64,000 nt of DNA from Myxococcota bacterium. Its GTDB lineage: Bacteria > Myxococcota_A > UBA796 > CAJQPC01. Below are positions 2,514 to 49,678 of the stretch, piece by piece (the stretch's first letter is position 1; every line of letters starts with the position of its first letter). The notes beneath the pieces were generated by a model. That model ran no database searches, was not told where the DNA came from, and saw only the letters and a program-made list of their open reading frames with translations. The DNA is taken from contig DASCPX010000091.1 of NCBI GenBank assembly GCA_036012755.1, forward strand, positions 39,507 to 103,506, read 5' to 3'. The position numbers and the translations under genes were made by a program.

Positions 2514-3194
2514 GTGCTGCTCCTCGCCTGCTATGTCGTCACACCGGAGCCCAGCTCCGAGGTCACCGTCCAGGGCTGGGTCTACGACTCGCCGCTGGCG
2601 GGCGAGGGCGAGGTCATCTCGACCGGCTCGGTCACCTACCTCGACAACAACCTCGTCGAGCTGACCGAGGCCGAGCAGCCTTTTCCGAGCTACCCGGGCT
2701 ACTGGCGCGCAACCATCCCCGCGGACGAGGAGTACAACCTCGTGATCGACGGCGGCGAGGGATACCACCCGGCGATCTGGCGCGGGCGGGCGCCGACGGG
2801 CGATGCCCAGAGCTTCCCGGTGTTCGGCTTCCGATCGGAGCAGGTCGACACCTTCTTCGAGGACCTCGAGGCCGTGACCGGCGTCGACGTCCACGTCGGG
2901 ACCGAGGATCTCGTGCACGTCTGGGGCAGCCCCAACGATCCGGAGTCCGTCTCCGGCGACGAGATCGGGGTCTACGCCAACGGCGGCGCCGGGGGCGTGC
3001 TGGCTTTCGCCGTGAACGACGAGGGAGTGCTGGAACAGACGGTCGATTCGCCGGTCCACTACTTCTTCGCCTTCAACCTGGAGCCCGGAGAGATCGTCGT
3101 CGCCTTCGATCAGGACGGCGTGGTCACGGAGGAGGCCTACGCCACCGTCGGCGGCGACATCGTCGCCCCCTGGTACTTCGAGGGCACCCGATGA
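2514..3194 (+). CDS. Acidic putative lipoprotein, beta-rich, unknown function
   Basis: GTG start after AAGG; MLLLAC leader; stop overlaps the next start. Confidence 0.75.
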   Translation: MLLLACYVVTPEPSSEVTVQGWVYDSPLAGEGEVISTGSVTYLDNNLVELTEAEQPFPSYPGYWRATIPADEEYNLVIDGGEGYHPAIWRGRAPTGDAQSFPVFGFRSEQVDTFFEDLEAVTGVDVHVGTEDLVHVWGSPNDPESVSGDEIGVYANGGAGGVLAFAVNDEGVLEQTVDSPVHYFFAFNLEPGEIVVAFDQDGVVTEEAYATVGGDIVAPWYFEGTR

Positions 3195-3901
3195 TCCTGC
3201 TGTTGGCCTGCAGCCAGGAGCCCGATCTCGTGACGCTCTCCGGAGTCGTCGCAGGGAGTCGCGAAGACGACGACGTCGGGGCGAGCGAGATCCTCGTCGA
3301 GACCCTGGGGCCCACCTATGAAGCGGTCGACGACGCGGCCACCGATGGCCGGGGCTACTTCGAGGTCCAGGTGATCGGCAGCACGCTGATGTACGTGACC
3401 TTCTCTGGCGACGACTTCGCCGCGACCGGCTTCACCGGCGTGGTCGGGGCAGAGGACTATGCCGTCGACGACGGGATCCTCTTCATGAAGACCGACGACG
3501 AGGTCGCGGCGCTCGACGCGCAGTACGCCGGCTGTCCGTACGTCGAGGAGGAAGGGGTCGGCCTCGTCGAGGGCGAGGTCCGCTACCACCTGCCCGGCTA
3601 CGAGGTCGACGACGGCGAGTGGCCGCTGGCCGGCAATGCCTACGCCTGGCTCACCGACGAGGGAGGCACGACCTGGGATGCCTGCTACCTCGACGGCGAG
3701 ACCGGCCTCTACGATCCTGACGCCGAGGTCACGGGAGACACAGGTCGGATCGCCATCTTCGGCGCCTTCAGTGGCCCCGCGACGCTCACCGTGGGCTACG
3801 AGATCGAAGGCGAGCCCTACTACGCGACGGAGTATATGGTCCACGTTCCAGAGGGCGGAATAGCTCCGATCTACCCCGCGTACGTACCGCTTCCTGGGTG
3901 A
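3191..3901 (+). CDS. Acidic putative lipoprotein, carboxypeptidase-regulatory-like beta-sandwich
   Basis: ATGA overlap; MILLLAC leader; VTLSGVV...ATDGRGYFEV motif. Confidence 0.75.
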   Translation: MILLLACSQEPDLVTLSGVVAGSREDDDVGASEILVETLGPTYEAVDDAATDGRGYFEVQVIGSTLMYVTFSGDDFAATGFTGVVGAEDYAVDDGILFMKTDDEVAALDAQYAGCPYVEEEGVGLVEGEVRYHLPGYEVDDGEWPLAGNAYAWLTDEGGTTWDACYLDGETGLYDPDAEVTGDTGRIAIFGAFSGPATLTVGYEIEGEPYYATEYMVHVPEGGIAPIYPAYVPLPG

Positions 3902-3969
3902 GCTTTGTTGCGCGGATCTCTCCAAGTCGGTAGCGTACGCTTCCCATTCCACACAAGGACACTTCGACC

Positions 3970-4245
3970 ATGGGTCAGATCACCAAGCCCGACACGAACC
4001 CCATCGTTCCCGCCCTCCTGAACTTCCTGCTGTTCGGCGGCGTCGGCTACCTGATGATGGGTCAGCAGAAGAAGGGCATCATCAGCATCGTCGCGACGCT
4101 GATCCTCGCCTGCGTCGGCATCGGCTTCATCATCCCGTTCATCACCGCATACGACGCCTACCTCCTGGGCCAGAAGCTCCAGAGCGGCGCCAGCATCGGC
4201 GAGATGGAGAACGGCCTCGATTTCCTGAACGCGATCTTCAAGTAG
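3970..4245 (+). CDS. Small TM2-like membrane protein
   Basis: SD AAGGA; PIVPALLNFLLFGGVGYLMMGQ..KG motif; two hydrophobic segments. Confidence 0.8.
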   Translation: MGQITKPDTNPIVPALLNFLLFGGVGYLMMGQQKKGIISIVATLILACVGIGFIIPFITAYDAYLLGQKLQSGASIGEMENGLDFLNAIFK

Positions 4246-4255
4246 GTCAGGCGGA

Positions 4256-4678
4256 TTGACCACCCACGCCAATCCAGAAGCGGCGTGGGCAGAGGGCAGG
4301 GCCTCCACTCCGGGGACCCTGCTCTTGCTCGTGGGCTTCTTGTCCATCGGGATGGCGGCGCTGAACATGCTCAACGGCCTGTTCGGCTTCGCCGACGGGG
4401 TGATGGCCAGCTACACGCCGGACGAGGAGTTCGGCGCGGCGATGAGCGGCACGACAGCCGTCCTCGTCGGCGCGTTCAACCTCGTGTTCTCCTGCGTGAT
4501 CGCCGCCGCGGGCTGGCGGATGCGCCACTTGGAGAGTCACACCCTGTGCATGGCCGGGGCGATCCTCGCAGCCGTGCCGTGCCTCTCGGGCTGCTCCTGC
4601 TGCCTCGTCACGATCCCGGTGGGGATCTGGTGTCTGCAGGTACTGCGTGACGACATGGTCCGCGCGCAGTTCCACTGA
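4256..4678 (+). CDS. Membrane protein (3-4 TM), unknown function
   Basis: TTG start; hydrophobic segments; Cys-rich PCLSGCSCCLVTIPVGIW motif. Confidence 0.7.
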   Translation: MTTHANPEAAWAEGRASTPGTLLLLVGFLSIGMAALNMLNGLFGFADGVMASYTPDEEFGAAMSGTTAVLVGAFNLVFSCVIAAAGWRMRHLESHTLCMAGAILAAVPCLSGCSCCLVTIPVGIWCLQVLRDDMVRAQFH

Positions 4679-4699
4679 CCTCTGCAGGTGCCCCCCTGC

Positions 4700-5182: not shown

Positions 5183-5222
5183 GGGGTGGGTGCGCAGTTA
5201 GTGCCGCCGGGGCCTAGTCGCA

Positions 5223-10784: not shown

Positions 10785-13700
10785 ATGGGGGCCTTGCTCA
10801 CCACACTGCTCGCGCTGACTGGCTGCATCGTGGACGCGCCTCCGCCGTGGGTCGGAGAGTGCGCCGAGCACCCCGAGGGGATCTACGACTACGGCGAGAT
10901 CGGCATCGGCAGCTGCCTGGCCGGACCGGTGTCGCTGTCCTGGACCTCGGACGGCTCGCACCTCCTCGTCACCAACGCGAATCCCTTCCTCGACTTCACC
11001 GGCGGGAGCGTCAGCGCCATCGACGTCGAGGCCGCGCTCGCGGGGGCCGCGGACCAGGACGACGCCCGGGTCCTCGTCAGCGACGTGAGCCCGAGCGCTC
11101 TGGACATGCCCAGCTTCCCTTCCTACGGGGAGCTCGTCGCTGTGCGCGACCTGCTGCTGGTCCCGAACCGCCTCACAGAGAGCGCAAGGACCCGTGTCGG
11201 CTACGACGATCTCTACTTCGTCGATGTCTCCGATCCGGCCGAGCTCGCGTTCGCGGAGGTCGTCGAGGGCGGAGCCCACCACCTCGAGCTGAAGGACGAC
11301 CCGGCGCTGGTCGCCTACGACACGACCAGCGGGTACGCCTTCGTGGCGAACCTCACGACCCACAGCCTCTCGGTGGTGGACGTGCTCGCGGACCCGGTCG
11401 AGATCATCGACGCCGTCGACACGGCGAGGGTCTCACGGCCGCGCTTCTTCGACTCGGACGGCAGCGGCTCCCATGTCGAGGCCGCCCAGCCAGAGGTCCT
11501 CATCGCGGAGGCAGTCTTCGACCAGGAGTGGACGCTGTCCTACGCAGAGGGCAGCTACCGCGTCTGGAGTCCTCGAGCAGAGGGCGCCGTGCGGCTCACC
11601 AGCATCGGCGACGAGGACTGGTCCGAGTCTGCCCGGGGCGCCGAGATCGACGTCGATGAGCTCGGCCTCGTAGAGGTCTCGGACCCCCAGCCCTACGAGT
11701 CAGATGCTGACGCGGGCATGCTCACGATGACCTTCGTCGACGACGGCCGCATCCTCGCCGCCGACGCAGCCATCATCTCCGGCGAGTGGGACCTCCGGAG
11801 CTCGGCCTTGCTCAGCGAGAGAGAAGGCGACTGGGACGAGATCCTCGGCGGACCGATGGCGCTGGTCGAGGACGAGCGCCACTATCTCTTCTACGACGGC
11901 ACCTCTGCGGAGGGCGTGCAGTCCATCGGGCTCGCCTCCGGGACCGACGGGACCGTCTTCAGGCGGGACAACTCCGGGACACCCGTCCTGAGCCTGGACG
12001 GTGTCCAGCTCGCGGACCCGCACGTGCTCTACGACCGGCAGGCCGACATCTACCGCATGTTCTTCAGCATGGACGACGGCTCTGGCTGGGTCATCGGACA
12101 CGCTGAGTCCACCGATCTGTCGGCTTGGACCATCGACGAGGACGCGGTCTTCGTGCCGGAGGCGGGGGAGGCAGCCGCGCCGGTCGTGACCTACGGCAAC
12201 TTCGAGTTCCGCATGTGGACATCGCGGCTCGGCGACGACGGCATCTGGCGCCTCGGCGCAGCCCGCAGCGTCGACGGCCTGAGCTGGACGGACCTCGGGG
12301 TCGTCTCGGAGCTCGACGCCGCGGAGCCCGCCGACGGGACTCCGCCAGGGGTCGGACTCCAGTCCCAGATCCTGCGCAGCTTCATCCTCAGCGGCGACGA
12401 GTACGGCACGACCCAGCTCGCGGTCCATGGCGGCGACATCCTGAACGCTTCGGGCTTCGGCTTCCTGCTTCAGCTCAGCGCCGGGGCCATCCTGGGCACG
12501 CAGCACGTGGCCGGAGTCGGCGACAACGGCGTCACGGCCGAGAGCTGGTTGGTCGACGAAGGCCTCGTCTACCTCACCCTCACGGACGCCGACGGCACCA
12601 CCTCCGTTGGGGTCATCGGCTGGGACGGGGGCCCCGTCGGCGAGCCCTCCGTCCTCATCACCCCCGAGTCGGGGCCCTTCGATGGCTCGGTGAGCCACCC
12701 TGTCGTCTTCCCCTCCGCCGCCGGCTACACGATGCTCTTCGCGGGCCAGATCGACGGCCGGACCGCCATTGGGTCGGCGACCTCGACGGACGGCCTCGAC
12801 TTCACGGTCGGCGATGCGCTCGTCCTCGACAACGTAGAGGACTGGGAGTCGCTGCTCGTCGCCCCCGGCAGCGTGACCGTCGAGGACGATGGCAGCTTCT
12901 CGCTCTACTACACGGGCTCCGACGGGAGCCGGTCTCGCATCGGCCACGCCACCTCCTCGGATGGACAGACCTGGACACGCGCGGCGGGACCGAGCGAGGA
13001 CTGGCTCATCTCGACCGGCGCCCCCGGCTCCTTCGACGACTCGGCGGTGCGCCATCCCTTCGCGCTCGAGATCGACGGCGTCCAGCACATCTGGTACGCC
13101 GGCTTCGACGGCGACTTCTGGCGTATCGGTCACGTCTCTCGAGAGGCCGACAGCGGAGACGACTTCGAGCCCACGGAGGGCCTGGACGGAGACGCCCGCC
13201 CGGTCATCGACGGTATCGCCGGCAACTTCGACGCCATCGACGCCTACCGGCCGGTGGTGAGCTGGGACGGCAGCACGCTGGAGATGCTCTATACCGGTCG
13301 CGACGGTGGCATCGAGCGCGTCGGGCGCGCTTCCGGGACTCGTCCGGACCGGCTCTACCGAGACCCGGCTCGCCCGACCCTCGGTGACTTCGCACAGTTC
13401 ACCACGATGGCGGGTGACGACCAGGGTGACGGCGACATCTCGCTGGTGCGAGAGGTGGAGGGCCAGCTCGCGGAGGGGCTGGCGGCGAGCTTCCTCCACA
13501 TCGACGACGCGCGGGGCTTCCTCTACGTCGCGAGCAAGCTGCACAACTACATCTACATCATCGACATCCGAGACGACTCCACCGAGATGTGGGTCGACGC
13601 GAACTACCTCGACATCGAGGCGCTCCTGGTCGCCAACACGGACGTCGGCGCGCGCTCCTTCCGCGGGCTCCTCGCGCCCGAGGGCGAGCGCTGGCTCTAC

Positions 13701-14153
13701 GCGCTGAACACCCAGCCGGAGAGCATCATGCTCTTCGACCTCGACGAGGTCGAGGACGACGACCGGGCGACCCTCTTTCCGGACGCTGTCGCTGGTTACA
13801 TCCCCGCTCCCCGTGCCATCGAGCGCGACGCGGGCCTAGAGTCCATGACCGCGCTGGGGCCTGCCCAGCTCGTCATGCTGGGCGACCGGATGCTGGTGTC
13901 GAACTTCAACGCCAACAGCGTGGGTGTCTACGACCTCCGCCTGGGGCTCTTCGGCGAACTCGTCGACGAGGTCGACCTGCTCGGCGAGAACCCCCACGCG
14001 CTCGCCTTGTCCCCGGACGGCACGATGCTGGCGGTCGGGAACTACGTAGGCGAGATCATCGACGGTCGGGTCAGCTCCACGGTCGTCATCCTCGACGTCG
14101 ACGAGACCAGCCCGACCTACCTCGAGGTCCTCGCTCGGGTGGCGAACCAATGA
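10785..14153 (+). CDS. Large acidic lipoprotein with YVTN-like and glycosidase-like (GH43/GH130-type five-blade) beta-propeller repeats
   Basis: LALTGC lipobox; at least 7 blades of P.V....y.m.y.G......IG.A.S.DG..W; YVTN-like ends (GENPHALALSPDG). Confidence 0.8.
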   Translation: MGALLTTLLALTGCIVDAPPPWVGECAEHPEGIYDYGEIGIGSCLAGPVSLSWTSDGSHLLVTNANPFLDFTGGSVSAIDVEAALAGAADQDDARVLVSDVSPSALDMPSFPSYGELVAVRDLLLVPNRLTESARTRVGYDDLYFVDVSDPAELAFAEVVEGGAHHLELKDDPALVAYDTTSGYAFVANLTTHSLSVVDVLADPVEIIDAVDTARVSRPRFFDSDGSGSHVEAAQPEVLIAEAVFDQEWTLSYAEGSYRVWSPRAEGAVRLTSIGDEDWSESARGAEIDVDELGLVEVSDPQPYESDADAGMLTMTFVDDGRILAADAAIISGEWDLRSSALLSEREGDWDEILGGPMALVEDERHYLFYDGTSAEGVQSIGLASGTDGTVFRRDNSGTPVLSLDGVQLADPHVLYDRQADIYRMFFSMDDGSGWVIGHAESTDLSAWTIDEDAVFVPEAGEAAAPVVTYGNFEFRMWTSRLGDDGIWRLGAARSVDGLSWTDLGVVSELDAAEPADGTPPGVGLQSQILRSFILSGDEYGTTQLAVHGGDILNASGFGFLLQLSAGAILGTQHVAGVGDNGVTAESWLVDEGLVYLTLTDADGTTSVGVIGWDGGPVGEPSVLITPESGPFDGSVSHPVVFPSAAGYTMLFAGQIDGRTAIGSATSTDGLDFTVGDALVLDNVEDWESLLVAPGSVTVEDDGSFSLYYTGSDGSRSRIGHATSSDGQTWTRAAGPSEDWLISTGAPGSFDDSAVRHPFALEIDGVQHIWYAGFDGDFWRIGHVSREADSGDDFEPTEGLDGDARPVIDGIAGNFDAIDAYRPVVSWDGSTLEMLYTGRDGGIERVGRASGTRPDRLYRDPARPTLGDFAQFTTMAGDDQGDGDISLVREVEGQLAEGLAASFLHIDDARGFLYVASKLHNYIYIIDIRDDSTEMWVDANYLDIEALLVANTDVGARSFRGLLAPEGERWLYALNTQPESIMLFDLDEVEDDDRATLFPDAVAGYIPAPRAIERDAGLESMTALGPAQLVMLGDRMLVSNFNANSVGVYDLRLGLFGELVDEVDLLGENPHALALSPDGTMLAVGNYVGEIIDGRVSSTVVILDVDETSPTYLEVLARVANQ

Positions 14154-15994
14154 GCCTTCTGCTGCTCGCCGCCTGCCTCAACGAGACGACCTTCATCGAG
14201 GGTCACTTCGACGGCCCGACCTCTGTGGCGGTGCTGCACGCCGAGACGGGCGGCCCCTTCTACGAGCCCGTTGCCTTCGTCTCCAACAGCCGCTCCGGCC
14301 TCATCGTGCCCCTGGACGTCAAGCACGGCTGGCTCCTGGCCGACGACCGCGCCTCGCCCTTCCTGGAGGCTCAGCCAATACCGACCGGCGCCGACCGCAT
14401 CCTCGGGGAGATCGCCGTGTTCGCTCCGGACACGGAGCACATCTCGCTCTTCGTCGCCGACAACAAGACCGCCACCTTGCTGACGGTCGACTACATCCAG
14501 GGGATCGGTGGCGACGGTGCCTTCATCCACTCCCGACCGCGCCTGGTCGGCGAGGTGGACTTCGTCGACGCCGACGGCAGCGGCGATGCTGCGACCCTCG
14601 ACGGCCTGGAGCTCCGGAGCGGGTATGCGACCACCGAGGACTGGGTCCTTCAGTTCGACGGCACCTCGTGGGAAGTCACCGGCAGCCGCTCGGGGGACCA
14701 GGCCTTCGACGCTCGCACCCTCGAGCCCTACAGCACCGACGACGGCGCCCTCCACTTCCTGATCTCCGGGGCAGCGACCAAGGGAGACCGCTTCGAATTC
14801 TCGGTGGACAGCGGGGTAGGGGAGATCGACCTCGCCGGTGTGGTCGGGGGCCTCTACATGTCCCCCGTCCAGGACTGGCTCTACGCGGCGGTGACCTCGC
14901 TCGAGGACGGCACGGGGCGCGTCGCGGTCATCGACCCGACCACAGGGCTCGAAAGAGGCAGCCTGGATCTGCCTGAGGATGCCAGGCCCCATCGCTTCAG
15001 CGGTGACCTCTCGGGCGACCTGATCTACGTCAGCGACGCCCGCAGCGGCGCGGTCTACGAGGTCATCGTCGACCCGATCGACCCCACCAGCTCCGCTGTG
15101 CGCACCCTGGAGATGCCCGGGCCGGTGATCGACGTCGCCTACCAGGCGGACGAACACTACGAGCACCTCTTCGTCGCGCTCGCCGGCGACACCCAGCTCC
15201 ACCTCTACGATCTCGTCGCGGACGCCTGGAAGGACATCAACACGGCGACGCCAGAGGTCGACGCCATCGAGCTCCAGACCCCCATCACCGGCCTCGCGAC
15301 CGGCCTCGATCGCATCCTGCTCCAGCAGTTCGGTCCCAACGGCACCCGGGCATCCGATCGCGTCGTCGTGGCCAGCACCTTCGAGGGCGTCCTGACCACC
15401 ATAGAGGCCGGCACTGGCTGCCTGATGGTGGACGAGAGCGGTCCCTTCGCCACCATGGACACGGACCTGCCATTCGACGACGAGGGCGAGACCAGCACCC
15501 CTTCTCTCGAGGCCAGCGGAGCGACTGGCCGCGCTGTGCAGGTCAACTCGTGCGGCGGTATCGCCAGGACCCAGACCTGGGTCCTGACCTACGACGGCTC
15601 CCTGGGCGCCTGGGTGGCCGAGGGGGCTCGCAGCGGCGTGCAGGACAACCTCGTCTACGAGGACGAGCGGTACGTGAGCGACAGCGGGGAGATCTCGCTC
15701 CTGGTGCGCTCCGGCACCCTGCCTTCGACCAGCGGGGACCGCTTCATGTTCCACGTCGACAGCGGCGTCGCAGAGGTCGACGGCGACATCAGCGGTGACG
15801 GCGTCGTCGCCGGAGACGAGCCGCGCCTCGAGATCCCGACCCGACCAGTGCCCTTCAGCTACCTCGCGGGTCCCGACGCGGAGTCATGGGGAGAGGTCAA
15901 CCGCAAGGTCGGCGTGCTCTGGCCCCAGCAGAACGCGGACATGGTGCTTCGGGTCAACCTCGAGGCCAACAAGATCGAGGTCATCTGGGACTGA
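14150..15994 (+). CDS. Acidic lipoprotein, beta-propeller plus duplicated beta-sandwich repeat
   Basis: ATGA overlap; MSLLLLAAC leader; two copies of W.L.f/yDG..W...G.RSG.Q.....Y..D.G......SG...GDRF.F.VDSGV. Confidence 0.8.
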   Translation: MSLLLLAACLNETTFIEGHFDGPTSVAVLHAETGGPFYEPVAFVSNSRSGLIVPLDVKHGWLLADDRASPFLEAQPIPTGADRILGEIAVFAPDTEHISLFVADNKTATLLTVDYIQGIGGDGAFIHSRPRLVGEVDFVDADGSGDAATLDGLELRSGYATTEDWVLQFDGTSWEVTGSRSGDQAFDARTLEPYSTDDGALHFLISGAATKGDRFEFSVDSGVGEIDLAGVVGGLYMSPVQDWLYAAVTSLEDGTGRVAVIDPTTGLERGSLDLPEDARPHRFSGDLSGDLIYVSDARSGAVYEVIVDPIDPTSSAVRTLEMPGPVIDVAYQADEHYEHLFVALAGDTQLHLYDLVADAWKDINTATPEVDAIELQTPITGLATGLDRILLQQFGPNGTRASDRVVVASTFEGVLTTIEAGTGCLMVDESGPFATMDTDLPFDDEGETSTPSLEASGATGRAVQVNSCGGIARTQTWVLTYDGSLGAWVAEGARSGVQDNLVYEDERYVSDSGEISLLVRSGTLPSTSGDRFMFHVDSGVAEVDGDISGDGVVAGDEPRLEIPTRPVPFSYLAGPDAESWGEVNRKVGVLWPQQNADMVLRVNLEANKIEVIWD

Positions 15995-17130
15995 TCTCCC
16001 TGCTCGCGGCCACGCCCCCGCCCATCGTCGGCGGCAGCGAAGTGCCCGAAAGTCGCTGGCCCTCCGCGGCCTCGATCCACTACGACGACCTGCCTGGTTG
16101 CAGCGGGGTGCTGGTGCATCCAGAGCTGGTCCTGACCGCTGGCCACTGTGCCTCCGAGACCCTGGACGCCGTCGCACTCGGCGGGGTGGACCTCGATGAT
16201 CCGGCGGGCTTCGAGTGGCTGGACGTCGAGGAGGTCCACACCCACGACGACCACTGGAACACGAACGATGTCAGTGTGTTGGTGCTATCCGAGCCTGCCA
16301 CGACGTCGCCGGCGAGGCTCGCGTTGGGGTGCGCCGCGGCCTTCGTCGTCGACGGCGCGGCGGCCAGGATCGTGGGCTTCGGCAACACCGAGACCGACGG
16401 TGGCGGGGCGACCTCCCTGCTCCACGAGGCCGACGTCGAGATCGTCGCGGCCGACTGCCAGGACGCCTCGCGCGGCTGCAACGTCGGCTTCAACGACCTC
16501 ATCGCCGGGGGCGAGGGTGTCGACACCTGCGTCGGTGACTCGGGGGGACCGCTCTTTCTCTGGGGGCCCAATGGGCAGCCCTACCTCGCGGCGACGACCT
16601 CTCGGGCCGCGCTCCCTTCGACCCGCACCTGCGGAGACGGCGGCATCTACGTCCGCGTCGATGGACTCGCCGAGTGGATCGAGGAGGTCTCGGGGCTGAG
16701 TCTCGAGACCCCCGACTGCGGAGAGTTCGAGAACACACCGCCTCAGCCAGCGCCTCTGCGGATGTCGTTGCGGGTCGGTGAGACAGCGACCGAGTTGCTC
16801 AGCGCAGAGGACCCCGACCCGGGCCAGGTCATCACATGGTCCCTGGCCGCCCCGGCGACCCTGGGCACGGCCACCCTGGAGGAGGCGACCCTGACCTACG
16901 AAGCCCGTGAGGAGGGAGAGGAGTCCTTGCTGATCGAGGTCGACGACGGCATCGACGCGGTGGACCTCGAGGTCCCCGTGAGCGTGTCGGCGGCACCTCC
17001 GGATCCCGTCGTGGATCCCGAGCCCCGCAATGGGTGCGCCCACGCTCCCGGAGGCCGCTTCTGGGTGGTGCTGCTCGGCGGCGCCTGGTTGGTCGGCCGG
17101 GGCTCGGCCAGCGATAGAGCTAGAGCCTGA
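15991..17130 (+). CDS. Trypsin-like (S1) serine protease with Ig/cadherin-like domain and MYXO-CTERM-like tail
   Basis: IVGG mature N-terminus, LTAGHC, NDVSVL, GDSGGP; tail GCAHAPG-hydrophobic-R; start inferred at CTG overlapping the upstream TGA. Confidence 0.85.
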   Translation: MISLLAATPPPIVGGSEVPESRWPSAASIHYDDLPGCSGVLVHPELVLTAGHCASETLDAVALGGVDLDDPAGFEWLDVEEVHTHDDHWNTNDVSVLVLSEPATTSPARLALGCAAAFVVDGAAARIVGFGNTETDGGGATSLLHEADVEIVAADCQDASRGCNVGFNDLIAGGEGVDTCVGDSGGPLFLWGPNGQPYLAATTSRAALPSTRTCGDGGIYVRVDGLAEWIEEVSGLSLETPDCGEFENTPPQPAPLRMSLRVGETATELLSAEDPDPGQVITWSLAAPATLGTATLEEATLTYEAREEGEESLLIEVDDGIDAVDLEVPVSVSAAPPDPVVDPEPRNGCAHAPGGRFWVVLLGGAWLVGRGSASDRARA

Positions 17131-37447: not shown

Positions 37448-38536
37448 CTAGCGAATGCCGACGAGGCGCCCGTCCGCGAGGCCCGCCGTCAGCACACCCT
37501 GGAAGATCGAGAGCCCGCCGACGACCGGCGCGTCCAGCTCGATCCCGCCCCAGCGCACGCCGTCGTCCACGTCGATGACGACGACCTGGCCAGAGGGGCT
37601 TCCGAGGTAGACGCGATCGCCGGCCAACACCGCGCCCGTCGAGAGCGCGACCCCGGTCTCGGCTGCCCAGCGCTCTGCTCCGGTCTCGGGGTCGAAGGCG
37701 TGGAGCAGACCGCCGGCCTCCGCGACGAGCCAGCCTGCGCGCGGGTGGAAGCTCGGGGGGCCGGATGCCTTCAGCCCGAGCTCCGTTCGCCACAGGCGCT
37801 GTCCGCTGTCCGCCGAGAAGCACACCGCGGCGCCGGGGACGTCCTCGTAGGGAGCGGTGATGACGAGCAAGCGCTGGCCGTCGAAGGCCACTCGCTCCTG
37901 GGCCGGTCCTCCGAGCACTGCGAGCCAGGCTTGCTCCCGGCCTTCGATCGCGATCAGCTCGCCCTCTTCCGTGGCCAGCCAGAGGCGCTCGCCGTCCGTG
38001 CTGAGACCGCCGGCCGAGCTGATGGCGCTGTCGACCGTCCAGCCCGCCGAGGACGACACCAGGCCACCCTCGACGACCCAGGCGAGCTCGTCCTCGTGGA
38101 GGACCGGACTGCCGGAGAGCTCCCCCATCGCGTCGAGGTTCGTCATCCGGTACCCGTCGACGTTCTTGAGCTTCACGAGCCGCTGGCCATCGCCCACCCA
38201 GATCCCGACCACGTCGACGCGCAGCTGTCCACGGACCTCGGCGTCCACCGACCAGGCGATGCTCCCATCGGGCTCCACTCGCAGCACCCGGTCCCCCGCC
38301 GGAAGGTAGAGCGCTCGCCCGTCCGTCGCCCCAGCCCAGACGACAGGGACGCCGAGGTGGTACTCCCACGCCACCTCGGGGGCCCCGGCAGGACCGGGAC
38401 CGGGCCAGATGTCGAGACCCCAGTCGGCGGGCAACGGCTCCGCGGTCGGAAGAGCCTCCGGCGTCGCCTGCGGCCCCATCGGCTGCACTTCGCGGTGGTG
38501 TGCCGTCGACGGCACGCAGGCCAGGAGCCACATCAT
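37448..38536 (-). CDS. PQQ-like beta-propeller lipoprotein (BamB-like fold)
   Basis: MMWLLAC; repeated A.D..TG...W blades. Confidence 0.75.
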   Translation of the reverse strand: MMWLLACVPSTAHHREVQPMGPQATPEALPTAEPLPADWGLDIWPGPGPAGAPEVAWEYHLGVPVVWAGATDGRALYLPAGDRVLRVEPDGSIAWSVDAEVRGQLRVDVVGIWVGDGQRLVKLKNVDGYRMTNLDAMGELSGSPVLHEDELAWVVEGGLVSSSAGWTVDSAISSAGGLSTDGERLWLATEEGELIAIEGREQAWLAVLGGPAQERVAFDGQRLLVITAPYEDVPGAAVCFSADSGQRLWRTELGLKASGPPSFHPRAGWLVAEAGGLLHAFDPETGAERWAAETGVALSTGAVLAGDRVYLGSPSGQVVVIDVDDGVRWGGIELDAPVVGGLSIFQGVLTAGLADGRLVGIR

Positions 38537-38560: not shown

Positions 38561-39718
38561 ATGAAAGCGCCCTCATGTGCTGTCGCTGCGTGTCTCCTCC
38601 TCGTCGGCTGCGGGGTCTCGCAGTCCAAGATCCCGGGTCACTCCATCTACGCGGACGAAGACGACCAGCTCACCCACGGCGACGGCGAGCTGCAGTTCGC
38701 GGTCGTCGGGAACCTCCAGAGCGAGGAGCAGGTCACCAAAGACCTGGTGGGCGAGCTGCGCCGGCGGGTCGACAAGAAGCAGCTCGACTTCGTCCTGCTC
38801 ACCGGCGACTCGGTGCCCATGTCGTCCACGAAGACCTGGCAGGCCTTCGATCAGCTCTGGCGCGAGGTCCTCGACGGTGACTCGATCCCCACGACGGAGG
38901 GCTACCGCGTGCCGGTCGTCGCGGTGACGGGGGACCGGGAATACGTCGGCGACAAGAAGCTCCTCGGCATGGAGGGCAGCTTCCCCGGCTACGGCACGGA
39001 CATCGGCTACAACCGCATCGCGAGCTGGTACCACTTCGACGTGCGGGTCGATGACGCCATCTGGCGCTTCCTCATCGTCGACACGAACAAGGACAAGCTC
39101 GGAAGCCGGTGGAACGAGCAGCTCTACTGGATCCCCAGGGCCACAGAGGGGCGCTACGACAAGATCCTCGTGTTCATGCACCATCCCCCATTGACGCTCG
39201 GCTCGGACACGGCGAGCAACGCGGGGGGGGCGCCGCTCGAGCTGCTGGAGGCCATCGAGGACAACTCCGGTCTGATGAAGGTGAAGGCGGTCTTCTCCGG
39301 CGAGCCCAAGACCACGGAGGTGCTGCTGCCCGACGGAAAGCTGGGGACGGCCTTCTTCACGGCTGGCGGCGGCGGCGCACCGGCCGAGGAGCTCGAGCGC
39401 TGGGGCAACGCCCACGCCCAGGGCTACGGCGATGTGCAGCTCGAGCCTTTCTTCGACCTCAAGCTCCAGGGGGACTTCGACTCCCAGGCGCGGGACAGCG
39501 AGTTCCCGGAGCAGGTCATCGACAAGGCCAAGGCCAGCGGCTCGTGGGAGGGCTTCACCGCCGCCTACGACCCCAAGTACTTCCCGCTCTATGGCTACTG
39601 GCTGGTCACGATCACCGGTGACGATCTCGTCGCCAGCTACCGGATGTACCAGGCCGGCGACTTCAGCGAGGTCTACCGGATCGACTTCGAGGGTCGGGAG
39701 TGGGTCTCAGGGGGCTGA
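38561..39718 (+). CDS. Calcineurin-like metallophosphoesterase-fold lipoprotein (degenerate metal site)
   Basis: LLLVGC lipobox; FAVVGN, LTGD, TGDREY, MHHPP, VFSGE, TAGGGGAP. Confidence 0.7.
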   Translation: MKAPSCAVAACLLLVGCGVSQSKIPGHSIYADEDDQLTHGDGELQFAVVGNLQSEEQVTKDLVGELRRRVDKKQLDFVLLTGDSVPMSSTKTWQAFDQLWREVLDGDSIPTTEGYRVPVVAVTGDREYVGDKKLLGMEGSFPGYGTDIGYNRIASWYHFDVRVDDAIWRFLIVDTNKDKLGSRWNEQLYWIPRATEGRYDKILVFMHHPPLTLGSDTASNAGGAPLELLEAIEDNSGLMKVKAVFSGEPKTTEVLLPDGKLGTAFFTAGGGGAPAEELERWGNAHAQGYGDVQLEPFFDLKLQGDFDSQARDSEFPEQVIDKAKASGSWEGFTAAYDPKYFPLYGYWLVTITGDDLVASYRMYQAGDFSEVYRIDFEGREWVSGG

Positions 39719-42459: not shown

Positions 42460-45060
42460 ATGAGCACCCTCCGCGACATCCTGCGTAGCGACGTGTTCCC
42501 GCGGGTCGAGAAGCCCTCGCGCTACCTGGGCACGGAGCTCAACGCGGTGCACAAGGAGCTCGGCGAGGTCGACCTGCGGCTGGCGCTCTGCTTCCCCGAT
42601 CTCTACGACCTCGGGCTCGGGAACCTGGGCCTGCACATCCTCTACGCCATCCTCAACGGCATCGAGGGTGTCTGGTGCGAGCGGGCCTACAGCCCCGCGC
42701 CGGACCTCGAGCGAGAGCTTCGCGCCCGAGGGCTGCCCGCCTTCGCCAACGAGTCCCAGGAGCCCCTGTCCGTCTTCGACGGTGTGGGCTTCACGCTGCA
42801 GTCGGAGCTGACGTACACGAACATCCTGAACCTCATCGACCTCGCCGGTCTGCCCCTTCGCAGCGAGGACCGGGCCGAGGACGCGCCGCTGTTGTTCGCC
42901 GGCGGTCCGTCGGCCTTCAACCCGGAGCCGCTGGCCCCCTTCATGGACTTCTTCGTGATCGGTGACGGTGAGGACGTCGTCGTCGAGATCGTAGAGGTCT
43001 TCCGGAGCACCTCCACCCGAGCAGAGCGCCTCCTCGCGCTCGCTGCGCTCGAGGGCGTCTACGTGCCAGCGCTCTACGAGATGGAGCAGCTCGCAGACGG
43101 GCGCATCCTGCCGCCGGTGGAGGGTCCGAGGATCTCCAAGCGCACGAGCGCGGACCTCGACGCCGCCACCTTCCCGGTCGACTACATCGTGCCCTTCACC
43201 CAGCAGGTGCACGACCGCGTATCGCTCGAGGTCCTTCGAGGCTGCACGCGGGGCTGCCGCTTCTGCCAGGCCGGAATGACCACGCGGCCGGTTCGCGAGC
43301 GCAGCATCGCCATGGTCGAGGAGCTGATGGACCGCTCGTTGCAGGCCACCGGCTACGAGGAGGTGAGCCTGGTCTCGCTCTCGACCTGCGACCACAGCCG
43401 GGTGCAGCAACTCGTCGACCGGATCGCGGACCGCGCCGCCGGAACCCGGGTGAGCGTCTCGCTGCCATCCCTGCGACTGGACAGCTTCAGCGTCGGCCTC
43501 GCTGATCGTGTCGCCGACGTGCGTCGCTCGGGCCTGACCTTCGCTCCAGAGGCTGCGAGCCCGCGCCTGCGCGCCCTCATCAACAAGTGGATCCCCGACG
43601 CCGAGCTCCTCGGAATGGCCGAGCAGGCCTATGGCCTGGGGTGGAACCACGTGAAGCTCTACTTCATGATCGGTCTGCCGACCGAGCGCGACGACGACAT
43701 CGAAGCGATCGCGGAGCTCACCCTCCGCACCCTGCGCGTCGGCAGGTCCGTCAACCGCCGCGCTCGCGTGAACCTGGGGATCTCGACCTTCGTGCCGAAG
43801 CCCTTTACGCCCTTCCAGTGGGCGCCGCAGATCACGATCGCCGAGACCCACCGCCGGCAAGGGATCCTCGAGCAGCGCTTCGGACGCAACCCCGGGATCA
43901 AGTTCGGACGCCACGGCGCCAGGGAGACCTTCCTGGAGGGACTGCTGACCCGCGGGGACCGCCGCACGGCTGACCTCATCGAGGCCGCCTTTCGAAACGG
44001 CGCCCGGCTGGACGCCTGGCGCGAGCACCTCGACTTCGCGGCGTGGGAGCTGGCCATCGAGCAGCTCGACTTCGACGTGGCGGAGGCGCTGCGGGAGCGC
44101 GAGCTGGACGAGCGCCTGCCTTGGGACCACATCGACGTCCACATCCCCAAGCGGTGGTTCCAGGAGGACTGGCAGCGGGCGCTGGAGCTGAAGCACGCCC
44201 AGGACTGCCGCCACCACAAGTGCCACCGCTGCGGTGTGATCGACGTCGAGCGGGAGCTCTGCGCATCGATGCTGCGGGACAACATCGAGGGTCGAAAGAG
44301 CGAGGCGCTCCACGAGCGCACCGAGAAGAAGGCTGCAGAGGCGAAACCCGCCGTCCAGCGGCTTCGCTTCCGAGTGGGCCGGGTCGAAGACGCGCGTTTC
44401 CTGGGTCACCTCGAGGCGATGAACGCCTGGATTCGCGCTCTGCGCCGGGCAGGGATGCCCCTCTGCTACAGCCAGGGCTTTCACGCTCACCCCCGCGTCA
44501 ACTTCGCAGCCGCCCTGCCCACCGGAGAGGAGTCGACCGGCGAGTACATGGACATCTTCCTGCGAGAGCCGGTCGATGTGGCGCAGGCCATGGCGCGCCT
44601 GGCGTCTGTGCTGCCTCGAGGCTTCCTGGTCCTTGCGGCCGCCGATGTGCCGCTGAAGGCGAAGAGCCTGATGGCCTCTGTCGAAGCGCTCGTCTACTCG
44701 CTGATCACCCCAGCCGATGATGGGCGCGTGGCCTCGAAGATCCAGGAGCTCAACGCCGCCACCGAGATCCCGATCATGCGAAGCGTGAAGACGCGGGACA
44801 AGCGGCAACGCAGAGGGCGTCGGCGTGTCCGAGAGCTGCGCGAGGTCGACCTGAAGCCCATGATCCAGCGCTTGGCCGCCAGGGCAGGGGAGGGCGGTGT
44901 GGTCATCGAGCTCGTGACCGTGCAGCACGAGGGCCGCTTCGCCAAGCCGAAGGAGCTCGTCCAGCTCCTCGGGCTCGATCCGCTGGCGACGCGGATCCTC
45001 AAGCGGGACACGGTGCTCGCCGGCGGAAACAAGGGGCTCGAAGGGGGCACCGAGTGCTGA
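42460..45060 (+). CDS. B12-binding-type radical SAM protein (TIGR03960-like) fused to TIGR03936-like domain
   Basis: KPSRYLG.E, FPD.Y, RGCTRGCRFCQAG, TFAPEA, STFVPKP.TPFQW; C-domain R.LGHLE, YSQGFH.HP, ALPTG.ES..EY. Confidence 0.9.
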   Translation: MSTLRDILRSDVFPRVEKPSRYLGTELNAVHKELGEVDLRLALCFPDLYDLGLGNLGLHILYAILNGIEGVWCERAYSPAPDLERELRARGLPAFANESQEPLSVFDGVGFTLQSELTYTNILNLIDLAGLPLRSEDRAEDAPLLFAGGPSAFNPEPLAPFMDFFVIGDGEDVVVEIVEVFRSTSTRAERLLALAALEGVYVPALYEMEQLADGRILPPVEGPRISKRTSADLDAATFPVDYIVPFTQQVHDRVSLEVLRGCTRGCRFCQAGMTTRPVRERSIAMVEELMDRSLQATGYEEVSLVSLSTCDHSRVQQLVDRIADRAAGTRVSVSLPSLRLDSFSVGLADRVADVRRSGLTFAPEAASPRLRALINKWIPDAELLGMAEQAYGLGWNHVKLYFMIGLPTERDDDIEAIAELTLRTLRVGRSVNRRARVNLGISTFVPKPFTPFQWAPQITIAETHRRQGILEQRFGRNPGIKFGRHGARETFLEGLLTRGDRRTADLIEAAFRNGARLDAWREHLDFAAWELAIEQLDFDVAEALRERELDERLPWDHIDVHIPKRWFQEDWQRALELKHAQDCRHHKCHRCGVIDVERELCASMLRDNIEGRKSEALHERTEKKAAEAKPAVQRLRFRVGRVEDARFLGHLEAMNAWIRALRRAGMPLCYSQGFHAHPRVNFAAALPTGEESTGEYMDIFLREPVDVAQAMARLASVLPRGFLVLAAADVPLKAKSLMASVEALVYSLITPADDGRVASKIQELNAATEIPIMRSVKTRDKRQRRGRRRVRELREVDLKPMIQRLAARAGEGGVVIELVTVQHEGRFAKPKELVQLLGLDPLATRILKRDTVLAGGNKGLEGGTEC

Positions 45061-45794
45061 TCCTCACCATGTCCTGCCTGTACAAGGCCCCTCCGCGTGT
45101 CTTCGTCGAGGACCACGGGGAGCTCTCGCGCTCGCCAGGCGTGGTGGCGCTGGTCGATCCGATCTTCCTCGACGGCGCCTCCGGCGATGCCTTCGCCGAG
45201 GGCGTCTTCGTAGGCAGCATCACGATGTCTGGCGGCTTCGTGGTCGACGAGGACGACGAGCACGGCATGCAGACGAGGTCCAAGGACTTCGTCCTGTCCT
45301 CAGAGGACAGCTACCGCTCACTCGCCGCTGGCTTCGTCGACTCCAGCCTGGGCGCAGCGCTCGACGATCAAGGCGTCTCCTGGCGCTCGGTGGAACTGGA
45401 GGCCCCGCTACCAGAGCGTCGGGCCTACCGGGGCACGCACCCCGAGGACGGCAAGGACAACGTGAACCTGCCACGCTTCACTCTCTCCCCGACGGCGCTG
45501 GAGCCAGGCAGCGTGGAGGGGGTCGACGTCGTCATCGTTCCCTACGTCGTGCGCTACTACAGCCACAACGGTGGCTGGTTCATCGGCCAGCACCTCGGCT
45601 GCGAGGCCGGGGCACGCATGCGGTTGTTCTGGGTCGCCTACGACAACACCAGCGGCGTCGCCCTGGCGTGGCGCGACATCGACGTGCGGTACTTCGAGGA
45701 GCACCTCTTCTCGCCGAGCTCAGCTCAGCTGGAAGACGCGCTGATCGAGGTCGAGGCCCTGGTGAAGAAGGACCTCGACCGCCACCTCTTCTGA
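45054..45794 (+). CDS. Putative lipoprotein, unknown function
   Basis: Overlaps the upstream stop; MLILTMSC leader; globular composition. Confidence 0.7.
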   Translation: MLILTMSCLYKAPPRVFVEDHGELSRSPGVVALVDPIFLDGASGDAFAEGVFVGSITMSGGFVVDEDDEHGMQTRSKDFVLSSEDSYRSLAAGFVDSSLGAALDDQGVSWRSVELEAPLPERRAYRGTHPEDGKDNVNLPRFTLSPTALEPGSVEGVDVVIVPYVVRYYSHNGGWFIGQHLGCEAGARMRLFWVAYDNTSGVALAWRDIDVRYFEEHLFSPSSAQLEDALIEVEALVKKDLDRHLF

Positions 45795-45797
45795 GAC

Positions 45798-46271
45798 CTA
45801 CTGGTTGACCGTCGGGCGGTCACCGATCTTGACGCCCCGAGCCTCGACGGTCGTGCAGCGCGTGCCGAAGAGCACCGGCGCGCCGGCGCTCGGGTACAGG
45901 GGCACACCCTTGAGCTCGGTGTGGACGCGGGGTGCGAGCAGGTGGGTCGCCTCGGGCATCTTCTCGAGCGCGTAGTACATCGCGCGGCTGCCCTCCGCTC
46001 CGAGCATCGCGCTGTGCATGACCGCGGCGCCCGTGCCGATGGTGCCGTCGAAGGCGAAGGTGCCCGGCGTGATCGAGGCGCCCTCGTTCTTGAAGAGGTG
46101 ACCGAAGTCGATGGTGAAGATGTAGGTGCCGCACTCCTCGTGGTTGGTGCTGCCGAGGACCGTATAGTCGGCCTTGGCGAAGGGAATCGGGGCACCGGGG
46201 ACGGTCGAGCCCTTGAGGGCGCAGCCGGTCATCATGGCGACGGCGGAGAGGGCGAGAACGAGGCGCTTCAT
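45798..46271 (-). CDS. Lipoprotein, unknown function
   Basis: Canonical MKRLVLALSAVAMMTGC signal with lipobox. Confidence 0.8.
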   Translation of the reverse strand: MKRLVLALSAVAMMTGCALKGSTVPGAPIPFAKADYTVLGSTNHEECGTYIFTIDFGHLFKNEGASITPGTFAFDGTIGTGAAVMHSAMLGAEGSRAMYYALEKMPEATHLLAPRVHTELKGVPLYPSAGAPVLFGTRCTTVEARGVKIGDRPTVNQ

Positions 46272-46368
46272 CTGGGCTTTCCTGCGGGCATGTTGGAATG
46301 GGGGAGGGGAGCCTATGGCAGTGCTCGCGAGGGGTCAAGCGCGTTAGAGGGTGGCTCAGGGAGGCGCC

Positions 46369-47511: not shown

Positions 47512-47553
47512 GCCTGCCCCGGCGAGGGTATGATGACGCCTCGTTGAGGCGGC

Positions 47554-48897
47554 ATGTCGACGAGAGACTTGATGAAGATCTGTAGCCTCTGCGGCACAAC
47601 CTATGACAATCGCGTAGATTTCTGCTTCCGCGATGGCACGCCTCTGCAGCCGGTCGCAGCGGACACGGACGTGCCCGATTCGCCTCTCCGCGAGGCGCTG
47701 CCCGATGTCCTGCCGCCGAGCTCGGATCTCGACGCACCGGATCCGGCCTCGCTCCGCTTCGACGACGTCCCCGAACCGATGGCCCTCCGAGGCGTGCTCC
47801 CGGACGTGGGCGCCGAGGTCCCGAAACCAGGGCACCTGGAGCCCAGCCCAGCTGTGCCGAAGCGCAGCGCGATCAGCGAGTCCCCGACGATCCCCGTGCC
47901 CATGGACCAGGCGAAGCCCTTCCTCGAGCCACCCGCGGTCGAACAGGCGCCACTTCGGATCGAGCCGCCCGAGCCCAGCCCCTTCGGTGGCGCCGAAGGG
48001 GACCTCGGCGAGGACGATCCTCCAGCGGGCCTCGATGACTCCGACGAGGTCTTCTCCGACTACCCGGACTACACGGACGAGGAGCCTCCGAAGTCCAGGA
48101 CCGGGGTCGTCTTCGGCGGACTGATACTCGTCGTGTTGCTGGTCGGGGGCGGCTTCGTGTTGCTCACCAACGAAAACGGAGGGTCCGAGCCAGTCGCTGA
48201 GCTCGACGCCGCGCCGGTGGCACCGCCCGAGCCCGACCCGGTCGTTCCCGACCCCGTCGATCTGGAGGAGCTGGCGGTGGCCGACGTGGACGAGCCGGCA
48301 GAGGTGGACGTGGACGAGCCGGACCCGGTTGTGGAGCCGACCCCGCCGGATCGGGTACGGAACACCGGCCGCAACACCGGAAGGAACACCGGAAGGAACA
48401 CCGGCGGTCGCACCAAGGCCGTCGTGACTCCGGCCGACCCCGTCACCGACGACAACCCGTGGGGCGAGACTCCGGCGCCGGCCGCGAAGGTCGCTCTGCG
48501 CATCTCCACAGAGCCCGTCGGAGCCTCGCTGACCGTCGACGGCAACCCCGCGGGGACCTCTCCGACCACCGTGGATGTCACTCCGGGAACGCACCAGCTT
48601 CGGGCAGAGCTCGCCGGTTACGAGCCGGCGACCATCGCCAGCGACGCGAGCGGGCGCTCGAGCAACGCGATCATCACGCTCACGAAGGTCGCCCCAGCAC
48701 CGAACGTGGTGACGCTCTTCGGACCACCGGGCGCCCAGGTCTTCCTCCAAGGGAGGAGCATCGGCTTCCTGCCAGTCCAGACGGAGCTCGTCCTGGGGAC
48801 CCACGCCTTCAAGGTCGTGACCACCGATGGAACGGTGTACACCGTGAACGGCTCGGTGACAGCAGACACGACAGGGATTCCGCTGAGCCCACCTTGA
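47554..48897 (+). CDS. Bitopic membrane protein: zinc-ribbon, Pro/Asp-rich linker, TM, PEGA domains
   Basis: CSLC...FCFRDGTPL; TM VVFGGLILVVLLVGGGFVLL; STEPVGASLTVDG...G.SP...VTPG.H...AELAGY (start may be ATG 47572). Confidence 0.8.
   Translation: MSTRDLMKICSLCGTTYDNRVDFCFRDGTPLQPVAADTDVPDSPLREALPDVLPPSSDLDAPDPASLRFDDVPEPMALRGVLPDVGAEVPKPGHLEPSPAVPKRSAISESPTIPVPMDQAKPFLEPPAVEQAPLRIEPPEPSPFGGAEGDLGEDDPPAGLDDSDEVFSDYPDYTDEEPPKSRTGVVFGGLILVVLLVGGGFVLLTNENGGSEPVAELDAAPVAPPEPDPVVPDPVDLEELAVADVDEPAEVDVDEPDPVVEPTPPDRVRNTGRNTGRNTGRNTGGRTKAVVTPADPVTDDNPWGETPAPAAKVALRISTEPVGASLTVDGNPAGTSPTTVDVTPGTHQLRAELAGYEPATIASDASGRSSNAIITLTKVAPAPNVVTLFGPPGAQVFLQGRSIGFLPVQTELVLGTHAFKVVTTDGTVYTVNGSVTADTTGIPLSPP
48358..48405 (+). 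repeat. 12-bp coding tandem repeat x4 (RNTG)4
   Basis: cggaacaccggc cgcaacaccgga aggaacaccgga aggaacaccggc. Confidence 0.9.
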
Positions 48898-48920
48898 GCG
48901 TTGTTCGTGCCATTGGCGGT

Positions 48921-48948
48921 ATTGAACATAATGTACATTATCGGACGG
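48921..48948 (-). other. dif: dif-like XerCD recombination site
   Basis: Minus strand CCGTCCGATAA-TGTACA-TTATGTTCAAT (11-6-11) versus E. coli GGTGCGCATAA-TGTATA-TTATGTTAAAT; intergenic AT-rich island. Confidence 0.88.
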
Positions 48949-48982
48949 TAGAGCCGGCACCGAGCTGGATATGATCCAGGTG

Positions 48983-49678
48983 ATGTCGTGGCTGCTTTCG
49001 TGCTCCCCCATGGACGAGGCCTACCTCGTCGCGTCCGGCTCCCTCGCGGTCGACACCGAAGCCCTGGACTTCGACGCGGTCGCAATGGACGAGGTGCTCA
49101 CCCGGGAGTTCACCATCGCAAACGGCGGGCATGACCTCCTCTCGGTCGACCTCACCCCGCTGGGCCGAGGCTTCACCGCCTCTCAGGACCGTGTCGAGCT
49201 CCTCGGAGCCCAGAGCGCGACTCTGAGCGTGTGGTTCTCGCCCTATGGCCGGGACGCTGCCCTGGGCGAGCTCGTTGTCGAGACCGCGGACGAGGTCCAT
49301 CGCGTGACGTTGTCGGGTACCACGAACCCAGACGGTGACGATGACGGCTACGAACACGAGGAGCTCGACGGCACGGACTGCGACGACACGGACGCGGCCA
49401 TCCACCCGGGGGCTGACGAGGTCTGGTACGACGAGGTCGACCAGGACTGCGCGGGCGGCGACGACTTCGACCAGGACGCCGACGGCTACGCACGCCGACC
49501 CGAAGGCCTCGACTGCGACGACGAGCGCGGGGACGTCAACCCGAGCGCGGAGGAGGTCTGGTACGACGGCATCGACCAGGACTGCCGAGACGACGACGAC
49601 TACGACCAGGACGCCGACGGCTACCCGGTCGACGAAGACTGCGATGACACGAAGGCCTGGATCGGGCCTTGTGAATAG
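48983..49678 (+). CDS. Putative lipoprotein with ASH-like Ig domain and putative metal-binding (DCDD...PGA.E..D..DQDC) repeats
   Basis: MSWLLSC leader (alternative start 48971); LDF..V......FTIANGG...L; two full and one partial DCDD repeats. Confidence 0.8.
   Translation: MSWLLSCSPMDEAYLVASGSLAVDTEALDFDAVAMDEVLTREFTIANGGHDLLSVDLTPLGRGFTASQDRVELLGAQSATLSVWFSPYGRDAALGELVVETADEVHRVTLSGTTNPDGDDDGYEHEELDGTDCDDTDAAIHPGADEVWYDEVDQDCAGGDDFDQDADGYARRPEGLDCDDERGDVNPSAEEVWYDGIDQDCRDDDDYDQDADGYPVDEDCDDTKAWIGPCE

Follow-up and report, generated by a model that had tools for sequence, protein, structure and literature searches.

A 64,000-nucleotide stretch of DNA from a Myxococcota bacterium (NCBI GenBank assembly GCA_036012755.1, contig DASCPX010000091.1, positions 39,507 to 103,506 of the forward strand; hereafter the window) raises the question of how short a signal peptide can become. 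Eight of its genes begin with uncharged leaders that reach a cysteine within nine residues: MLLLAC (2514), MILLLAC (3191), MSLLLLAAC (14150), MTFLLLLAC (24214), MLALMLAC (26632), MMWLLAC (38536), MLILTMSC (45054) and MSWLLSC (48983). These leaders had been listed in an original prediction, made from the letters of the window, which proposed an unusual Sec/Lgt/LspA specificity or a separate targeting route. All eight were found at these positions and on the expected strands, with the cysteine at residues 6, 7, 9, 9, 8, 7, 8 and 7, respectively. The analysis of the whole genome and its relatives favors, with a probability of about 0.7, Sec signals reduced to their core and cleavage site and processed by the standard enzymes, and not a separate route. 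They represent a genome-wide, lineage-biased variant of the Sec signal that fails two defining textbook features and nevertheless very probably works like the textbook class.

Short uncharged leaders and their start codons

Gene calling, by a hexamer model that had been trained on this genome, yielded 5,934 genes, 5,818 of them with a closed 5' end. The chance expectation for the leader patterns was derived from 72,255 interior start codons. At the model's own starts, a lipobox-like cysteine peaked at residues 7-10 (136, 219, 147 and 91, compared with about 5 in the background). An uncharged hydrophobic leader with the cysteine at residue 6-12 was found in 599 of the 5,818 genes, against 9.6 expected, and the pattern that the original prediction had put forward for such a count was matched by 524 genes (12.7 expected). 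Short leaders ending in A-x-A, typical of signal peptidase I (SPase I) substrates, with 9-18 residues, were present in 240 more genes (14.2 expected); 215 of them have 9-13 residues in total, and the class has no N-terminal Lys or Arg. Conventional basic lipoprotein leaders coexist with the short ones (142 genes vs 23.4 expected). A scan independent of the gene caller gave 583 short and 151 conventional lipoprotein leaders, with 16 short ones in the reversed-sequence control, and the starts chosen by the model with no motif guidance gave 748 leaders with the cysteine at residues 6-12.

The short leaders have a median of 7 residues before the cysteine and a mean of 4.4 large hydrophobic residues after the Met. 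Leader lengths form a continuum from 6 to about 25, with no gap. The absence of charge is partly built into the short pattern and was re-tested with this constraint removed: only 16 of 637 leaders contained Lys or Arg. At model-chosen starts, these residues occurred in 5 of 327 leaders with the cysteine at 9-11, which have 1-3 positions free to carry them, as compared with 87 of 101 leaders with the cysteine at 16-23. Shortness and absence of charge go together. Leu at -3, Ala/Gly/Ser at -1 and Cys at +1 are retained in the short leaders, and position -2 is Leu in 401 of the 599. The strict lipobox [LV][ASTVI][GAS]C was fitted by 103 of the 599 short and 80 of the 142 conventional leaders, a difference partly forced by the short pattern, which bars Ser/Thr at -2. 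The mature N-terminus is net negative in 95% of the short lipoprotein-type and 87% of the conventional proteins, and downstream transmembrane segments were found in just 1.2% of the short lipoprotein-type proteins. No Arg, and hence no twin-arginine motif, was found in the short leaders; separate twin-arginine leaders exist in the genome. When the second residue is small, the cysteine stands one position later (mean 9.0 vs 8.0).

The short leaders are genuine N-termini. The start forms a 4-base ATGA overlap with the upstream stop in 114 of the 599 genes, an in-frame stop lies within 8 codons upstream in 139 (all three stop codons being represented), and in 211 the 30 codons upstream are free of all seven codons that could serve as starts. 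The in-frame G+C content at third codon positions was 0.60 upstream of the start and 0.90 downstream, as is similarly the case for other genes. Shine-Dalgarno words peaked at -9 to -12 before the short-leader starts, and a -10-like hexamer was located at -12/-13 in 12.2%/5.7% of the short-leader genes, 4.3%/1.9% of the other genes and 0.0% of the interior starts. In seven of the eight window genes, no ATG, GTG or TTG occurs in frame back to the upstream stop or within 30 codons. The gene at 48983 has alternative starts 1 and 4 codons upstream, and its longest version would still be uncharged, with Cys11. GTG is the start codon at 2514, 24214 and 45054. The constraints noticed in the original prediction were also confirmed, namely in-frame stops three codons upstream of 24214 (where it is the stop codon of the upstream sulfatase gene) and of 26632, and ATGA overlaps at 3191 and 14150. 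In case of the PQQ propeller at 38536, five of seven homologues (53-79% identity) share the 7-residue leader and the cysteine, while the residues that follow diverge; the remaining two were called from a later start. A search with the PQQ protein of the window gave no named relatives.

A stop three codons upstream was considered as special evidence and rejected, as stops within 8 codons were about equally common before short-leader and other genes (23% vs 21%). It is partly the stop-like beginning of the -10 hexamer at -12; it constrains starts and is not enriched. Across the whole genome, a -10-like hexamer 12-13 nucleotides before the start was seen in 18% of the short-leader genes and 6% of the other genes. 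This suggests that leaderless transcripts are frequent in this Myxococcota_A genome, and more so on short-leader genes.

Carriers and lineage distribution

Of the 839 short-leader proteins, the 20 densest regions supplied a sample of 144, which were trimmed to 340 residues and compared with Pfam. About half of them gave matches, and most of these belong to the envelope. They comprise sulfatases, MopE-type repeats, FG-GAP, an alginate-export barrel, a multihaem cytochrome c, a family 5 solute-binding protein, L,D-transpeptidase, amidase and peptidases M15/M23/M75. A function-first set led to the same result. Among 33 assessable Omp85, BamD, LolA, TonB-receptor and OmpA-domain proteins, whose leaders were read by eye, 26 had no basic n-region: all six Omp85 proteins including BamA, BamD, both LolA, three of the six TonB receptors and 14 of the 18 OmpA-domain proteins that could be assessed. 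Two TonB receptors (one fused, one a fragment) and three OmpA-domain genes (two open-ended, one MotB) were left out, and three of the 14 OmpA-domain proteins require a start downstream of the model's. Leaders of the A-x-A type were seen on Omp85, LolA, BamD and TonB receptors. The short leaders thus sit on extracytoplasmic proteins, as originally predicted.

The short form is a truncated conventional signal: nearly all imelysin homologues have longer, basic leaders, and so do many orthologues of BamD and BamA. The imelysin of this genome has its cysteine at residue 8, whereas nearly all of 119 homologues have long basic leaders: from 120 sequences (its own included) 107 leaders could be parsed, of which 101 contain Lys or Arg and 100 have the cysteine at residue 16 at least. 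Retention of the cysteine, on which the original prediction depended, is seen both in the propeller homologues and in imelysin, where it aligns with the lipobox cysteine of the conventional homologues. The BamD leader has no Lys or Arg here, while most orthologues of its kin have one. In the kin, BamA and BamD leaders are mixed, many of them longer and basic; the BamA start was not readable in five (one masked, four mis-anchored). BamD is normally a lipoprotein. In 30 genomes of the order, however, most BamD proteins show an SPase I-type leader with no lipobox, and only about three show a leader cysteine.

The relatives found through SecY are assemblies labelled as Myxococcota or mislabelled, and the record Deltaproteobacteria bacterium UBA796 falls inside the clade of the order to which the genome belongs. 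UBA796 may serve as the name of this order; a class UBA796 has been placed in Myxococcota_A in the available part of a preprint (10.64898/2026.07.10.737566). The distribution of the leaders rests on samples of 8-60 kb per genome. Short and conventional lipoprotein leaders numbered 42 vs 46 in the order (27 genomes, 1.18 Mb), 5 vs 16 in the rest of the class (10 genomes, 0.32 Mb) and 4 vs 17 in other classes (12 genomes, 0.40 Mb). Most of the hits outside the order look like internal starts, and some inside it are false too. This genome is an extreme case, its density of short leaders being 8.7 per 100 kb vs 3.6 in the order. The trait is lineage-biased, in line with the lineage proposed originally, since the samples are richer inside the order than outside. 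The public labels of many assemblies of the clade are wrong (Enterobacterales, Alphaproteobacteria, Klebsiella pneumoniae, Bifidobacterium breve), and surveys based on names would miss the trait.

Export machinery and competing explanations

One standard Sec/Lgt/LspA/Lnt/LepB/Lol set is present. Each of secA, secY, ffh and yidC is present once; the genome further encodes three S26 peptidases, one lnt over the cut-off, two lolA, two lspA and five lgt. Four of these genes form a tandem lspA-lspA-lgt-lgt cluster (contig C59, about 99,970-102,650), and the His of the Lgt HGG motif is found in one of the five copies, the others having Tyr, Met, Thr or Asn. The inspection of paralogues advised in the original prediction thus revealed extra lgt, lspA and lolA copies, but secA is single and the number of lgt genes is not special to the lineage: 3-5 copies occur in 15 genomes of the order and 2-7 in 16 other genomes of the class. 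Expansion of Lgt was rejected as an explanation on this ground.

The leaders resemble Sec/SPase II lipoprotein signals of the E. coli Lpp type in their hydrophobic core, Leu at -3, Ala/Gly/Ser at -1, invariant Cys and polar tether; Lgt, LspA, Lnt and Lol are encoded, and the cysteine is homologous to that of conventional orthologues. They differ from that class in the loss of the basic n-region and of a membrane-spanning h-region, in Leu instead of a small residue at -2, and in the short form being the majority in the genome. Likewise, the A-x-A motif on BamA, BamD, LolA, other barrels and periplasmic proteins is that of Sec/SPase I substrates, and LepB is present; unlike the tripartite n/h/c layout, most of these leaders have only 9-13 residues and no N-terminal Lys/Arg.

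According to the mechanism proposed from these data, the n-region was lost and a leucine-rich core of about 4-7 residues became fused directly to the lipobox (for Lgt, LspA and Lnt) or to A-x-A (for LepB). The short leaders would use SecYEG. Because a 7-residue helix cannot span the bilayer, the uncharged and possibly still formylated N-terminus would have to sink into the lateral gate or the membrane, so that the cysteine reaches the periplasmic face. A basic residue would oppose such sinking, which would explain why short leaders exclude Lys/Arg and long ones keep them. The acidic mature N-terminus may help to orient the chain outwards. A retained formyl group would favor burial of the N-terminus, although the later cysteine after a small second residue could equally reflect removal of Met. 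Protection of N-formylated membrane proteins by the signal recognition particle, in the available text of PMC5454389, is a known way to keep a hydrophobic N-terminus uncharged; unlike the 7-residue leaders, the signals in that precedent are long and belong to proteins of the inner membrane. If the ancestor of the order had a permissive translocon, this could have let n-regions erode gene by gene. Such loss would be easy, because one base change turns a Leu codon of the core into a start codon.

A candidate for this permissive step is SecY residue 187, although by itself it is a doubtful one. The residue aligned with E. coli Ile187 was Ala/Ser in 12 of 12 genomes of the order; outside it, 45 of 46 genomes had Ile and one had Met. 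Further genomes gave Ala/Ser in 13 of 13 members of the order and Ile in one more genome of the class, that is, 25 of 25 and 46 of 47 combined. All 80 named loci that had been picked by other motifs likewise had Ala/Ser; this set probably overlaps with the sampled genomes of the order. Outside the order, 116 SecY columns are conserved to 95% or more; two of them were lost inside it, namely 187 and E18D, the latter set aside as conservative; in four neighboring genes none of 137 such columns was lost. The other five pore-ring residues are normal in the order. Ile187 is a member of the isoleucine ring in the available text of PMC2171872, and most prl alleles, as far as covered in the accessible parts of PMC3518225 and PMC3164448, map to the ring or plug and let defective signals through. 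As in prl alleles of E. coli SecY and yeast Sec61, a bulky pore-ring residue is replaced by a small or polar one; unlike them, the change is natural, fixed order-wide and at Ile187, and its effect is predicted only. Several points weigh against this step. The change occurred only once, on one stem (clade support of the order 0.855), 187 is the most variable ring residue, and no published prl allele or prl phenotype for I187A/S was found in literature searches. In 147 diverse SecY representatives the residue was Ile in 80, Val in 25, Ala in 13, Met in 12, Thr in 8, Ser in 7, and Cys and Pro in one each, so that Ala/Ser occurs in 20 of 147 and Thr in 8. Since only one evolutionary event is involved and Ala/Ser is found in those 20, the replacement is at most permissive and no more than a candidate. 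In a wider version, which can be offered tentatively, the SecY of the whole order would by nature be of low fidelity and would let through signals whose shortness keeps them from spanning the membrane, with the N-terminus buried in the gate or bilayer. If true, the tripartite signal and the loop model would have a natural, genome-scale exception that could be traced to one testable residue, and most of the envelope proteome of this cell would be exported with no cytoplasmic N-terminus anchored by positive charge. The SecY of the order also shows Gln/Arg for acidic residue 110 (cytoplasmic loop after transmembrane segment 2) and Ser/Ala for Thr168; at Phe192, which lies one turn away from the pore ring, Thr prevails. 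The change E110Q, present in all but two sequences of the order, was dropped as weak because the site varies widely. In an alignment of SecA with solved structures, the groove region was gapped.

Four other explanations were weighed. A dedicated route parallel to Sec, such as a specialized Lgt/LspA paralogue, insertion by YidC only or an additional factor, is unlikely. Such a route would account for the five lgt and two lspA genes, four of them clustered, for the split of leaders into short uncharged and long basic classes and, through the His of the HGG motif, for paralogues that may differ in use. However, class members with few short leaders have just as many Lgt copies or more, the leader lengths are continuous, secA, secY, ffh and yidC are single-copy, and Sec-dependent SPase I substrates are shortened too, including beta-barrels of 700-1,000 residues. 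For the same reasons a lipoprotein-specific peculiarity is not favored. Of the original prediction, the genuine N-termini, their placement on extracytoplasmic proteins and the lineage trait are supported, and the separate route is not. It is quite improbable that the lipoprotein-type leaders are targeted outwards with no standard processing, as uncleaved N-terminal anchors or lipidated without cleavage: the prevalence of Leu at -2 and the rarity of the strict lipobox would fit, but the other lipobox positions are kept, the cysteine stands where conventional homologues have theirs, and LspA, Lnt and two LolA are encoded. Moreover, Lgt and LspA read the lipobox at the periplasmic face (PMC8048626, available part).

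The two remaining explanations are highly improbable. If unrecognized starts, read-through or frameshifting produced longer N-termini with a normal n-region, the upstream start codons of some genes and the few conventional leaders among the hits would be explained, and the starts have indeed been deduced from sequence. This possibility conflicts with the close upstream stops, the genes devoid of any of the seven start codons and the 114 overlaps; in addition, the upstream DNA looks non-coding and homologues in other assemblies begin at the same residue. Similarly, a tag for acylation or membrane tethering at the cytoplasmic face of non-exported proteins would suit leaders too short for a classical signal and the half of the sample with no Pfam match. 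It is hard to reconcile with the carriers, which include BamA, BamD, LolA, TonB receptors, OmpA domains, a solute-binding protein, multihaem cytochrome c, imelysin, L,D-transpeptidase and amidase. Proteins of these kinds work only outside the inner membrane.

The preferred reading, that of reduced Sec signals handled by the standard enzymes, also has points against it. Leaders of this length are at odds with the standard picture of a membrane-spanning, basic signal with a positively charged n-region (PMC9360617 and PMC8048626, as far as available). Another ATG, GTG or TTG lies within 30 codons upstream in 204 of the 599 genes, a few of the sampled short hits are actually conventional leaders, and the sample of 144 contains cytoplasmic false positives (RpiB and two amine oxidases). 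Against the SecY step in particular, one or two plausible short leaders occur outside the order, and samples of 20-60 kb from five of its members with Ala/Ser187 showed none of the lipoprotein type.

No description of the trait was found in the open-access literature, subscription journals and supplements being outside the search. The accessible part of a secretome study (PMC11495043) carries no remark on it, and signal peptides are not mentioned in that of the Myxococcota preprint cited above. Signals of about 6-13 uncharged residues, roughly half the textbook length, would serve hundreds of envelope proteins, core factors of outer-membrane assembly among them. The strict patterns cover about 840 of the 5,818 genes (14%), and rule-based predictors and start callers therefore probably misplace much of the envelope proteome of the lineage; the labelling rules of SignalP 6.0 assume n, h and c regions and a seven-residue hydrophobicity window (available text of PMC9287161). 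If the leaders work as predicted, a free-living diderm would be able to do without a basic n-region and a membrane-spanning core in most of the proteins it exports, BamA included. A natural lower bound for Sec/Lgt/LspA/LepB would lie at about 6-7 residues for SPase II and 9-10 for SPase I, and the purpose of the n-region could be tested with hundreds of natural examples, with conventional orthologues as controls. The SecY Ile187 change offers a one-residue experiment, and very short signals could serve secretion engineering.

Genes of the window

The features of the window are collected in the table. The original prediction had assigned exported-type domains to all eight Cys-leader proteins; a Pfam match was obtained for three (sulfatase, PQQ_2 propeller and MopE-type repeats) and none for the other five. 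Its non-Cys equivalents were recovered as short uncharged SPase I-type leaders at 50863 and 62045, while the one at 15991 needs a CTG start. The conventional leaders it had mentioned at 46271, 38561 and 29556 coexist as described. The intermediate leader at 10785 was absent from its list.

Table. Leaders, genes and the promoter-like element located in the window (positions count from its first letter).
Feature	Position	Strand	Details
GTG-start gene, short lipoprotein-type leader (2514-2531, Cys6)	2514..3194	+	no Pfam match; no upstream start within 30 codons
Short-leader gene (3191-3211, Cys7), ATGA-coupled to preceding gene	3191..3901	+	no Pfam match
Propeller-type protein of 1,122 amino acids, intermediate uncharged lipoprotein-type leader (Cys14)	10785..14153	+	
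Short-leader gene (14150-14176, Cys9), ATGA overlap	14150..15994	+	no Pfam match
Trypsin-family protease, putative short non-Cys leader if CTG is the start	15991..17130	+	PF00089, E 2e-28
GTG-start gene, short leader (24188-24214, Cys9), then acidic tether	23438..24214	-	stop of upstream gene in frame, 3 codons before
Sulfatase-domain protein, short leader (26609-26632, Cys8)	24224..26632	-	PF00884, E 1e-26; in-frame stop 3 codons upstream
PQQ_2 (BamB-like) propeller, short leader (38516-38536, Cys7)	37448..38536	-	leader and Cys shared by 5/7 homologues
GTG-start gene, short leader (45054-45077, Cys8)	45054..45794	+	7-nucleotide overlap with upstream stop; no Pfam match
-10-like hexamer, probable leaderless promoter that would fix the start	48970..48975	+	7 nucleotides before ATG at 48983
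Immunoglobulin-like and MopE-type repeat protein, short leader (48983-49003, Cys7)	48983..49678	+	
PQQ_2 propeller, 10-residue SPase I-type uncharged leader	49694..50863	-	E 4e-40; in-frame stop 3 codons upstream
Protein with SPase I-type uncharged leader of about 10-11 residues, ATGA-coupled to upstream gene	61413..62045	-	no Pfam match
Comparison: conventional basic lipoprotein leader (Cys17)	45798..46271	-	
Comparison: conventional lipoprotein leader with Lys (Cys17)	38561..39718	+	
Comparison: FG-GAP protein, conventional leader (Arg, Cys19)	26656..29556	-	

The adjoining, translationally coupled short-leader genes at 2514-3901 (+) encode proteins of 226 and 236 amino acids, which are possibly diverged paralogues or a pair. 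At 10785-15994 (+), two large coupled lipoprotein-like proteins of the propeller type (the second with 614 amino acids) have almost no Pfam coverage and are directly followed by the trypsin gene. The apparent CTG start of the latter overlaps the upstream TGA, and the next common start lies beyond the leader and a mature-type N-terminus. Its C-terminal tail contains Cys, is hydrophobic and then basic, and resembles a MYXO-CTERM sorting tag.

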